Shown here: piece by piece, positions 4,357 through 6,558 of the stretch | Layout: every line of letters starts with the position of its first letter | How positions within the stretch are numbered: the stretch's first letter is position 1 | NCBI GenBank assembly: GCA_012295275.1 | Contig: CM022669.1 | Coordinates: 8,556,001 to 8,620,000, forward strand | Direction: 5' to 3' | DNA: 64,000 nucleotides | From: Chrysomallon squamiferum | Lineage: Eukaryota; Animalia; Mollusca | Notes under the pieces: model-generated | Told to the model about the DNA's origin: nothing | The model's input: only the letters and a program-made list of their open reading frames with translations | Database searches by the model: none | Program-made: the position numbers and the translations under genes

Positions 4357-6558
4357 CATTATTAATTTCCTAGAAGATAAAATTCAGAAAAATACTAGAA
4401 CGAAATCGCGGATTCAGAACAGATATACATTTTTTAATACTAAAGTAACTAAACTCTTAACAGCCAATATACTGTACTTGTATCCACTACCTCTCTTTTA
4501 AACGGATAAAAACACTGAAATCTTCGTGCAAATGTGGTTGCAAGGTTTTAGCATATAGAACATGCTGTAAAGAATGTCATGCTTGTTTCCATGGAGATAA
4601 CGAACTTGAACTTGAAGACGGGTCAGTGATGAAAATGAGAGATCTGAAAGCAGGACACAAGGTATTAACAGGTAAATAAATACTAATATTTATATATCTC
4701 AGTTTTAGTGCAGATTTCGTGGCTCAGAGATGTGTAAAGGTTACAAAGGTTCAAACAGATTACTTTGCTTTACAGTGCAAGATGGTGCGCGAATATTTTC
4801 ACAAGTGAAAACTTTCATAAAACGACAGCCACACACCAATGCAACTTATCGAACGTTGACAACAGAAAATGGAAATCACATCACCATGACAGACGACCAT
4901 CTGATATTTGTGTCTAAGAACAACAGATCCACTGAAATGAAAGCCAGGTTTGTATCTTTTCTTTGACGAAGTTAAGGCTTGTTCTTTTCTAGAAATAATC
5001 TCAGATTGCTTCCTTAGCTGGGCTGTGATGAACTTGTAATGTGGTTCGGCTGCAGTATGTTTTTTGGTGGAATGAATGATCAGTTATTGAAGTGACATTT
5101 TAACTTTCACCCGTCAAGAAACGAAGTGTACGATAAACCAAAACATCTGATCTCGCAAGATTTCCAACACAAATTTAATATGTTGACTATACAACTGCTG
5201 TCACTGATATTGGCGTATGAATTTCAGAATCTCGACTCGCTTGATTGAGAATGTGAATCTAAATGATTATTTCTTTACGCTGTACCGTGTTGCTTTTACA
5301 AGTGTCATATATTCCACACGTCAAATACACCTTCTCCCTTCCTCGACAGTTATAAGCAGTTATAGGTTAAATCAGCCAATACTTAAAATAACAAAGGCAT
5401 TTAAATTTATCATAAAGTAAAATATTTGTCATTCCTGTGAATACTGGTTGTTTATTTTATCATGTTGAAATCTTTCAGGTTTTCGTTGTTTGTGGAACGA
5501 GGTGACTACGTTTTCTCTTCCCGGTCGTGTTCAAGTGGTCTTTGTCCAGAGCGAGTCGTGGAAATATCTTTGTCCGAGAAAGAAGGTGCGGTTACCGTTA
5601 CTATCACCACCACACTAAGACCGCTACTACTAGTCCTACTACTGCTACTATTACAACTAATAATAGAAACACATTAATTGCTACGAGTCCTGCTACTACT
5701 ATTTATAGTACTAGTACTACTACTACTATCACTATTAGAACTAATAATAACATTAATTGCTAGGAGTACTGCTACTACTATTACTACTACTAGTACTACT
5801 ACTACTATCACTATTAGAACTAATAATAACATTAATTACTAGGAGTACTGCTACTATTATTACTACTACTAGTACTACTACTACTATCACTATTAGAACT
5901 AATAATAACATTAATTACTAGGAGTACTGCTACTACTATTTATAGTACTAGTATTACTACTACTACCGCTACTGCTACAAGTTTTCCTAGTCATATTACA
6001 ACAACCTATATTACTAACGCCGTTATCACCAAAACCAACAGTTGTTATTGTTCAGCTACTGCTAGAACCACAGCCCCTTCAATTATTACTGTAGCTAAGC
6101 ATCTGTTGCTTGTACCTCACTATTTTTATATATTGTTATTTCTGTTTGTATGCAGCTTTCTATGTATATATATATATATATTATATACATAAGTGTTTAA
6201 CCGTCCGCATTGTGGGTGTTTTACATCAATACCCATTTCTTGTACGAAGTTATTTCTCGTATGTACTCATGTATCGTATGTCAGGTGTTTCTCAGCTACT
6301 TGTAGATATTAATACCAATAACATTTCTTGACAGGTTTGTACGTACCACTCACAGACACTGGAACTATTATTACGGATGGAATTTTTGCTTCATGTCATG
6401 GTTTTGTCGATCACGACTTTGAACACTTCGTCCTCACTCCATTCCGCTGGTTTCCGTGGCTACTGGAACATTGGCAAGAAGACGGATCTAGTCCAATAAT
6501 AGAAGGAATGAGATATCTGGGTACGTTGCTGATTCCTGGAAACATTGACTCAATCTGA
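3713..6558 (+). CDS. G1: secreted Cys-rich peptide-Hint/Hog (hedgehog-related) precursor, 259 aa, 6 exons, intact
   Basis: Exons 3713-3755, 4087-4112, 4464-4671, 4776-4947, 5479-5585, 6335-6558; all GT-AG and phase-compatible (780 nt). MHVFYFCFISLLLSVITAVISYA-PIYCTCIHYLSFKRIKTLKSSCKCGCKVLAYRTCCKECHA|CFHGDNELELEDGSVMKMRDLKAGHKVLT...ITMTDDHLIFV...GLYVPLTDTGTIITDGIFASCHGFVDHDFEHFVLTPFRWF. Matches hedgehog Hint motifs (CF, L..GD.VL, TxxHL, GxYAPLT..GTIVVDG..ASC). Confidence 0.88.
5595..5975. repeat. (TAC)n-derived low-complexity tract with a 79-bp higher-order repeat (x3) in G1 intron 5
   Basis: actattagaac recurs at 5731, 5810 and 5889; single unit in the G3 counterpart. Confidence 0.8.

Follow-up and report, generated by a model that had tools for sequence, protein, structure and literature searches.

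The window analyzed here is a 64,000-nucleotide stretch of the Chrysomallon squamiferum genome (GenBank assembly GCA_012295275.1, contig CM022669.1, positions 8,556,001 to 8,620,000, forward strand), and it carries a cluster of genes predicted to encode small secreted proteins that end in a Hog domain, the self-processing domain of Hedgehog proteins. In these genes, lysine stood at the position of Asp46, the residue with which Hedgehog activates cholesterol, and the HWY motif of the C-terminal tail was replaced. Judged by the alignments, lysine at position 46 and the loss of HWY hold without exception in a family that spans the molluscs, and the window genes were filed as further members of Lophohog, a family that has already been named. 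A chemistry differing from the cholesterolysis of Hedgehog, which had been suggested in an earlier note on this DNA (the original prediction), is a reasonable inference from these residues. For the second step of the reaction, we tentatively favor directed transfer to a membrane-borne, lipid-like nucleophile rather than to Asp-activated cholesterol, with a probability of roughly 0.4.

The hexapeptide KTFIKR was found six times by a six-frame motif scan, at 4808, 40753 and 50445 on the forward strand and at 13925, 24980 and 33825 on the reverse strand. Six gene copies in the window held all four Hog exons, with open frames in copies A, D, G and H and frameshifts in copies B and F. The original prediction had read FS[Q/E]VKTFIKR in all six and had assigned its lysine to the Asp46 position. 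The reading was accurate, with FSQV preceding the lysine in copy A and FSEV in the remaining five, and the assignment was obtained concordantly by HMMER against PDB 1AT0, by MAFFT and by hhalign. In the HMMER alignment, 'ifsqvktfikr' lay opposite 'vysevilfmdr' of 1AT0 (chain residues 37-47), and the D46H mutant structure 6TYY aligned alike. The six copies are recent paralogues and therefore do not count as six independent observations; the independent support came from the mollusc relatives, where lysine occupied the Asp46 column in 23/23 family sequences (17 in alignment A3, P0005 and five short fragments). Lys-Arg was present at this column in all 17 family proteins of A3, and both residues were invariant in the 12 rows of the family alignment A4. 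By comparison, the six Hedgehog-type proteins in A3 had Asp (four) or His (two, one spider Hedgehog and the ENA record P0029). Moreover, when the family profile was compared with the Hedgehog-type profile, hhalign gave a probability of 100% and an E-value of 1e-43, with the Lys column paired to the Asp column.

The natural histidines at this column were those of P0036 (Hedgehog of the spider Oedothorax gibbosus; FLHR) and P0029 (FIHH), which may be compared with the engineered D46H. The Hog domain of P0029 followed a long N-terminal part that looked GTPase-like by eye (G-x-x-G-x-G-K-S).

The other catalytic residues were retained, as the original prediction had stated: Cys1, TxxH and the ASC cysteine were kept in the copies, and the exon with Cys1 (4464-4671 in copy A) fell outside the interval to which that prediction referred. 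The context of Cys1 was CFHG, CFYG or CFHA, TxxH was TDDH in five copies and TDNH in copy H, and ASC was present in 6/6. The residue preceding Cys1 varied, being A, C or G in the window and G, S, D, P, A, I or V in the relatives. The second cysteine, that of the SC motif in Hedgehog, is reportedly described in a 2025 paper as a branched-intermediate site. In addition, two acidic residues were specific to the family and absent in the Hedgehog-type rows, namely a near-invariant Asp at Hint position 5 (CF[PH]GD) and the invariant Asp of GDY; the Hedgehog-type rows had G-[HQN]-[YF] at the latter site.

In the tail, LTPFRW was followed by GSSPII (copies A, B and D), GSNPII (F), GYSPII (G) or GSSPVI (H), as had been noted before, and the end previously given as LGTLL was LGTLL in five copies and LGMLL in copy F. 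The proposed replacement of HWY was found as G-[SY]-[SN]-P at the equivalent place of the MAFFT alignment; the hhalign alignment stopped short of it, and the equivalence is accordingly positional only. Complete tails were available for 16 of the 17 family proteins of A3. The Hedgehog-type rows of the MAFFT alignment A3 read G-x-H-[WTQ]-Y, and the family counterpart was G-[YHF]-S-P in 13/14 gastropod rows, G-Y-S-S in the remaining one (the Gigantopelta paralogue P0010) and G-M-P in the chitons. PFRWFPWLL and DGYSP were kept across gastropods, and the chiton variant was P-[VI]-RWFPSLF with G-M-P. Helix 1 of the tail, described earlier as helix-1-like, was aligned by hhalign with helix 1 of the Hedgehog sterol recognition region (SRR; xAHxxxxPxR), and the whole helix-loop-helix tail was aromatic-rich and strongly conserved.

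C-terminal extensions ending in RTDL, RTEL, RIEL, QTEL, SLDL or RSEL were observed in P0019, P0045, P0021, P0047, P0048, P0050, P0039 and P0010 of A3. They spanned Patella, Haliotis, chiton and one Gigantopelta relative, and were absent from the window copies and from most Gigantopelta copies. We take these RTDL-like termini to have the look of endoplasmic reticulum (ER) retrieval signals.

The fold was modelled for P0049, the nearest full-length relative, with alignment A3, and this model stands in for the window proteins. The mean predicted local distance difference test score (pLDDT) was 79, with 87-98 in the 10-residue blocks of residues 81 to 220. The tail had 80-89 in blocks 221-260, dropping to 65 where the second helix ends, and consisted of helices 223-243 and 250-262 with a short QQDGYSP loop between them. 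The best Foldseek matches were 1AT0 and 6TYY, with E-values of about 8e-14 (7.7e-14 for 1AT0), target template modelling scores of 0.93-0.94, a root-mean-square deviation (rmsd) of 1.6 Å and 32% identity. VIA-align gave Z values of 21.9 and 21.6 (21.9 for 6TYY), with 145/146 residues aligned between 75-220 of the model and 258-403 of the chain. The structural comparison with the Hedgehog Hint domain, which had been named as a check, thus ended in a close superposition (Z about 22, rmsd 1.6 Å), and in the model the fold is that of Hedgehog, nearly residue for residue.

Compared with the Hedgehog C-terminal domain (1AT0, 6TYY, PF01079), the window genes and their relatives shared the fold (Z 21.6-21.9, rmsd 1.6 Å, 31-32% identity), Cys1, TxxH, the second cysteine in the SC motif, tail helix 1 (xAHxxxxPxR) and a predicted helix-loop-helix tail. 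They differed in the absence of the Hedge domain from the window genes, in Lys for Asp46 (or His), in G-x-S-P for G-I-H-W-Y, in a short loop of 6-7 residues and in the residue preceding Cys1, which was not fixed as Gly.

The interval of the original prediction, 4776-6558, corresponded exactly to exons 4-6 of copy A, beginning at the acceptor that opens the second Hint exon and ending with the stop codon. The gene model of copy A was as follows:

3713-6558, forward strand: copy A, whole gene, six exons, open 259-codon frame
3713..3755, forward strand: exon 1, 43 nt, ATG and the first 14 codons of the signal peptide, phase 1, GT donor
4087..4112, forward strand: exon 2, 26 nt, the remaining signal peptide, AG acceptor, GTATGT donor
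4464..4671, forward strand: exon 3, Cys-rich N-peptide (CxC...CxCxC...CCxxC), cleavage site A|CFHGD with Cys1, first Hint strands
4776..4947, forward strand: exon 4, Hint strands, FSQVKTFIKR (Lys in the Asp46 column), TDDH (TxxH)
5479..5585, forward strand: exon 5, mid Hint strands GDYVF...CPERVV, found by tblastn with P0001
6335..6558, forward strand: exon 6, final Hint strands, ASC cysteine, 53-residue tail (in order helix 1 FEHFVLTPFRWFPWLL, loop QEDGSSP, and helix 2 up to LGTLLIP), TGA stop

The gene models were drawn from sequence alone. The signal-peptide exons were found through conservation among copies A, F and G, and the signal peptide was assigned by hydrophobicity and by likeness to annotated relatives. 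The exon 1 block was conserved across these three copies and gave an M-H start as in Gigantopelta P0049 and P0003; exon 2 was likewise conserved in them and brings exons 1 and 3 into frame. The four Hog exons of copy A had AG acceptors, GT donors and compatible phases in a single frame. The predicted product starts with a signal peptide of about 23 residues; a peptide with 8 cysteines in about 40 residues comes next, and the 196-residue Hog domain completes it. Against the Pfam PF01079 Hint cut-off of 29.7 bits, exon 4 scored 47.1 bits and exon 6 scored 41.9 bits. Exon 3 scored 22.5 bits, under the cut-off, and aligned to the GCF junction of SHH. Furthermore, exon 6 aligned in HMMER with the SHH and fly Hh chains across ASC and the beginning of the tail. 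The Hedge signalling domain was absent: the part preceding Cys1 has about 63 residues including the signal peptide, and on exon 3 Pfam gave only Hint and Vint.

For the gene start, a similarity search with Gigantopelta N-termini and a simple M-H pattern search gave nothing. An in-frame upstream extension of exon 3 of copy G was rejected as a start, as stops occur there in copies A and F and the acceptor is common to all. A degenerate duplicate of exon 1 was present upstream (ATG at 3260), with its donor GT mutated to AT, and 2954-3932 of the window consisted of 2.2 repeats of a 453-bp unit that includes exon 1 of copy A along with a (CT)n microsatellite. Trinucleotide repeats of the ACT/AGT type were observed at 5624-5965 (last intron of copy A), 53433-53912 and 55500-55700; those of copy A start soon after the donor of the third Hint exon, and read-through of this donor gives a long Thr/Ser-rich open reading frame (ORF).

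The window was AT-rich (25-39% G+C in 2-kb windows over the 64 kb), with abundant microsatellites. No long bacterial-type ORFs were found in it, and it was taken as eukaryotic because the coding pieces are short exons bordered by GT/AG. The closest database proteins were all molluscan, the top match being from Gigantopelta aegis with 62% identity across the last exon. No further convincing coding ORF was found among stop-to-stop frames of at least 110 aa window-wide and of at least 70 aa in 55900-64000; no family search was made with any of these ORFs.

At E <= 0.001, 38 proteins were matched in a full HMMER scan that used the motif exon as query, and word-indexed searches added others. The close relatives came from Gigantopelta aegis (many paralogues), Patella caerulea, three Haliotis species and the chitons Acanthochitona crinita and Liolophura sinensis. 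A search with the family profile, which is weak on distribution because it was word-indexed, gave 9 matches at E <= 1e-8 and added no species or phylum. A maximum-likelihood tree was built on 23 Hog domains and divided them, with 99/98 support, into 4 Hedgehog-type rows and 19 rows of the family; among the latter were P0050 and the four window copies that are intact. These window copies formed one group (100/100) adjoining Gigantopelta P0049. The partial rows P0039, P0015, P0038 and P0033, together with P0005 and the broken copies B and F, were omitted from the tree.

P0050, from Acanthochitona crinita, bears the source name 'Lophotrochozoan hedgehog-related'. It belongs to the study of De Oliveira et al. 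2016, in which the Lophohog clade was extended (PMC5103448). The N-peptide pattern CxCxC...CCxC was common, by eye over a short region of A3, to P0050, P0019, P0021 and P0015, Patella and Haliotis included, and was partly lost in copy H. On account of the tree grouping with P0050 and of this pattern, the window genes were filed as Lophohog-type. The family was reportedly established by Bürglin in 2008 (Genome Biol 9:241), and its founding sequences are said to be from Lottia gigantea and Capitella. No Lottia or Capitella proteins were among the matches of the homologue searches, and the Lophohog assignment rests on P0050.

The window genes resembled Lophohog in the signal peptide, the small Cys-rich N-part (CxCxC...CCxC) followed by Hog, the Lys-Arg at the Asp46 column and the PxRWFP tail. 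Gene expansion in gastropods was also a common feature, the window genes being clustered; early-branching gastropods have an expansion of Hh-related genes, with 11 genes in a limpet (PMC5103448). The window N-peptide was different in being shorter and in lacking the W-T-D-x-V linker that precedes Cys1, so that its final cysteine is separated from the cut by 0-2 residues. Among the literature matches listed, no discussion of position 46 or HWY was found, either for Lophohog or for the Hog domains of other Hedgehog-related proteins; the lysine may be visible in the founding review and in the supplements of PMC5103448.

A Lys-46 Hog domain was also observed behind an astacin-type metalloprotease (PF01400 + PF01079) in P0005, P0010, P0011, P0051 and P0052 of Gigantopelta aegis. 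In these predicted fusions, the Hog domain would cut itself off a protease. Astacin together with Hog- or Hint-domain terms was not found among the literature matches listed.

Similar arrangements are found in other phyla. The nematode warthog, groundhog and quahog proteins share a Hog domain behind a secreted non-Hedge N-part, a tail unlike the Hedgehog SRR and lineage expansion (PMC2362128), and differ in their N-domains (Wart, Ground, Qua) as well as in phylum. Shog1/2 of Xiphinema and Xhog3 of Trichinella likewise combine a signal peptide and a very short N-peptide (15-34 residues predicted) with Hog (PMC2362128), their N-peptides being unrelated to those of the window. Inteins and bacterial intein-like domains share the Hint fold (Z 14-18) and the first step with Cys1 and TxxH. 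In contrast to inteins, the window protein stops after the tail and has no C-extein, which makes splicing impossible.

The other copies and the gene fragments of the cluster were located as follows:

12507..14718, reverse strand: copy B, four Hog exons, 1-nt insertion in the third Hint exon causing a frameshift
23394..26871, reverse strand: copy D, open 254-codon frame
26871-26829 and 26227-26214, reverse strand: candidate signal-peptide exons of copy D, proposed on sequence only
32386..34711, reverse strand: copy F, 2-nt deletion right behind the KR codons, third Hint exon degraded and without an AG acceptor
39854..42407, forward strand: copy G, open 258-codon frame, six exons, GT/AG throughout, tail GYSPII
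48604..51912, forward strand: copy H, Hog frame open, several N-peptide cysteines lost, TDNH, ASCYG, GSSPVI
17394-17583, forward strand: fragment, frameshifted last-exon copy
18327-18530, forward strand: fragment, lone intact last-exon copy
28391..28580, forward strand: fragment, frameshifted last-exon copy, twin of 17394-17583
53333-53431 and 55407-55511, forward strand: diverged exon-5-like fragments
54234-54389, forward strand: diverged exon-6-like fragment without the ASC cysteine

The open frames of copies A, D, G and H had 253-259 codons, and the annotated Gigantopelta relatives have 257 and 271 aa. For copies D and H, analogous signal exons of 43 nt and 14 nt are proposed. Copy F is probably a pseudogene. 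At least five fragments lay beside the full copies, and those within 17394..18530 sat in an inverted duplication (9866-13082 versus 21219-17957). The cluster region was a patchwork of direct and inverted segmental duplications with 77-98% identity, and copy A was a mosaic, with F/G-like 5' exons and 95% identity to copy D from about 4793 onward. In genomic terms the cluster itself is unremarkable: a known family has expanded in one lineage, and some of the copies are dead.

An 82-bp tandem array of 22 copies (95% match) was observed at 8741-10531 on the forward strand, with a shorter inverted partner at 20537-21219; it sits between Hog gene copies, within the large inverted duplication. First-exon candidates (M-D-V-I-I-F-F-F-A-I-L...) were present at 7512 on the forward strand and, as a mirror, at about 22440 on the reverse strand. 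They resemble the proposed exon 1 of copies B, D and H, and no Hog exons were assigned to them.

Selection on the copies was estimated by the ratio of non-synonymous to synonymous substitution rates (Ka/Ks), which was 0.20-0.44 over the Hog region of the four intact copies; since the pairs are non-independent and gene conversion occurs, the values are read only as evidence of purifying selection. In three comparisons with the diverged copy G, the ratio was 0.24-0.53 for the Hint core and 0.08-0.24 for the 53-residue tail. The tail of copy H had 6-7 non-synonymous and 0 synonymous changes relative to copies A and D. The Hog domain, including its tail, is under purifying selection in most copies.

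The published chemistry of Hedgehog provides the frame in which the lysine has to be interpreted. D303 (D46) is hydrogen-bonded to Cys1, with coupling of the pKa values; it first holds back the N-to-S shift and later takes the proton from cholesterol (PMC9163320). The D303A mutant underwent cleavage by dithiothreitol (DTT) and no cholesteroylation, D303A, N, R and E each speeded DTT cleavage (PMC9163320), and D303H (D46H) kept structure and activity with a widened substrate range (PMC9163320; PDB 6TYY). For SHhC of fish and frog, D46A had no measurable cholesterol activity and formed the thioester faster, the D46A ligand was retained and degraded in cells, and a carboxy-sterol was taken only by D46A, which the authors ascribed to charge repulsion in the wild type (PMC13738340). 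Asp46 has accordingly been proposed as a brake on a premature N-to-S shift and wasteful hydrolysis, with thiolysis 2-6 fold faster upon its removal (PMC13738340, PMC9163320). These reports were in agreement with the view taken in the original prediction that Asp46 is needed for sterol activation and not for the thioester, as D46 mutants form the thioester and D46A is inactive toward cholesterol (PMC9163320, PMC13738340). Furthermore, a Hedgehog fragment without the SRR still makes the thioester (Hall 1997, as summarised in PMC9163320), and the second cysteine is specific to Hedgehog and absent from inteins (PMC9163320). The two SRR helices are joined at HWY, a hinge that lies beside the cholesterol tail in molecular dynamics and cross-linking (PMC7906309).

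In the mechanism that we propose, the precursor would enter the ER, the thioester would form at Cys1, and a secreted Cys-rich peptide of about 40 residues would be released. Formation of the thioester is suggested by analogy, Asp46 mutants of Hedgehog still forming it. The thioester would likely not be resolved by Asp-activated cholesterol; instead, the tail would most likely present a membrane-borne, lipid-like nucleophile to it. The lysine would shape the active site, either by stabilising the Cys1 thiolate or by pairing with the incoming group. Directed transfer is favored as the second step because the tail is as conserved as the core, whereas thioester formation in Hedgehog needs no tail.

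Several points weigh against directed transfer. The D46H Hedgehog stays active (PMC9163320), which indicates that a non-acidic base is possible and that a sterol might yet be activated by lysine. In cells, the fate of D46A-type Hedgehog is retention and degradation rather than hydrolysis (PMC13738340), so that loss of the base alone gives no working cleavage route. The tail may be conserved for membrane or ER localisation only, a dual role having been described for the SRR (PMC9163320). The Asp residues of CF[PH]GD and GDY may be compensating carboxylates; the structural match gives ranges and not residue pairs. The hhalign alignment ended after tail helix 1, which leaves the homology of the loop and second helix unsupported and places GSSP for GIHWY by MAFFT position only. 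The Ka/Ks pairs are non-independent, with gene conversion evident in the mosaic copy A, 2/6 copies are broken, and the constraint on the tail of copy H is relaxed or altered. Finally, no RNA evidence for expression of any copy was found: no RNA match was listed for 4400-6600, and three RNA contigs of the same organism, from other loci, covered only the last-intron repeat (5584-6027) and no exon, and are silent on expression.

The alternative that survives best, doubtful as we consider it, is plain autoproteolysis, in which the thioester would be hydrolysed, perhaps by Lys-activated water, leaving a free carboxyl end on the peptide, and the tail would serve folding or ER/membrane localisation. 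It would agree with the lifting of the proposed brake once Asp46 is removed, which makes thiolysis 2-6 fold faster (PMC13738340, PMC9163320), with the unconstrained residue before Cys1 in the window and the relatives, and with the RTDL-, RIEL- and QTEL-like ends of several relatives, which suggest that the Hog part stays in the ER. However, hydrolysis does not explain why the constraint on the tail equals or exceeds that on the core and why the tail was retained from chitons to gastropods, since Hedgehog without the SRR makes the thioester. The retention of the Hedgehog-specific second cysteine is not explained either, and in cells D46A Hedgehog was retained and degraded, with no efficient hydrolysis (PMC13738340).

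It is quite unlikely that a lysine with lowered pKa acts as the general base and that a sterol, cholesterol or another of molluscs, is still esterified. Although the D46H swap is active on broader substrates (PMC9163320; 6TYY), His occurs naturally at the Asp46 column in a spider Hedgehog and one Hog protein (P0029), and the conserved tail helix 1 is the membrane- and cholesterol-recruiting helix in Hedgehog, D303R and D303E speeded DTT cleavage like D303A and, in this respect, were unlike the wild type (PMC9163320). Moreover, the HWY hinge is gone too, so that two sterol-related elements changed together in 16/16 relatives with a complete tail.

Attack of the lysine amine on the thioester, which would yield either a branched peptide-Hog product with an isopeptide link or a transient relay through acyl-lysine, is very improbable. 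The transfer from thioester to amine is chemically easy, and since Asp46 is hydrogen-bonded to Cys1 in Hedgehog, a lysine amine at this position would adjoin the thioester; however, precedent in Hint domains was not found in the literature examined, and the peptide would stay unreleased. A decaying cluster, in which young duplicates are turning into pseudogenes and the altered motifs serve no function at present in Chrysomallon squamiferum, is hardly credible in spite of two frameshifted copies out of six, at least five fragments, the lost N-peptide cysteines of copy H and the lack of RNA cover seen on exons, as four copies have open frames and all splice sites with Ka/Ks of 0.20-0.44, and the Lys and tail traits long predate the cluster, being shared without exception by seven further species of mollusc.

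Directed transfer can also be phrased more specifically, in a form that is unlikely as it stands: the mollusc Lys-46 Hog would be a charge-reversed Hedgehog active site that adds another, possibly anionic or self-activating, lipid-like nucleophile to a Cys-rich peptide. Such a pairing is chemically possible, as the carboxy-sterol works only with Hedgehog lacking Asp46 (PMC13738340). If true, these proteins would represent a new class of lipid-tagged secreted peptides, and in Gigantopelta, astacin proteases would be treated likewise.

The Lophohog family, its expansion in early gastropods and the general idea of a non-sterol adduct are already known. The additional Lophohog members and a testable question on the chemistry of Lys46 are new and moderately interesting. 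The term 'adduct recognition region' was coined in 1997 because cholesterol addition by nematode Hedgehog-related proteins was unclear (PMC2362128), and whether the Hogs outside true Hedgehog add cholesterol, something else or nothing has been a question since then. The family is a clean natural experiment in this respect, with the fold and thioester machinery kept, Asp replaced by Lys in every member and the hinge changed alongside, and proteins of about 255 residues with a tiny cargo are suited to intact-mass analysis. Either outcome would indicate how far the lipid transfer of Hedgehog depends on Asp46, and may reveal a new peptide modification in molluscs.

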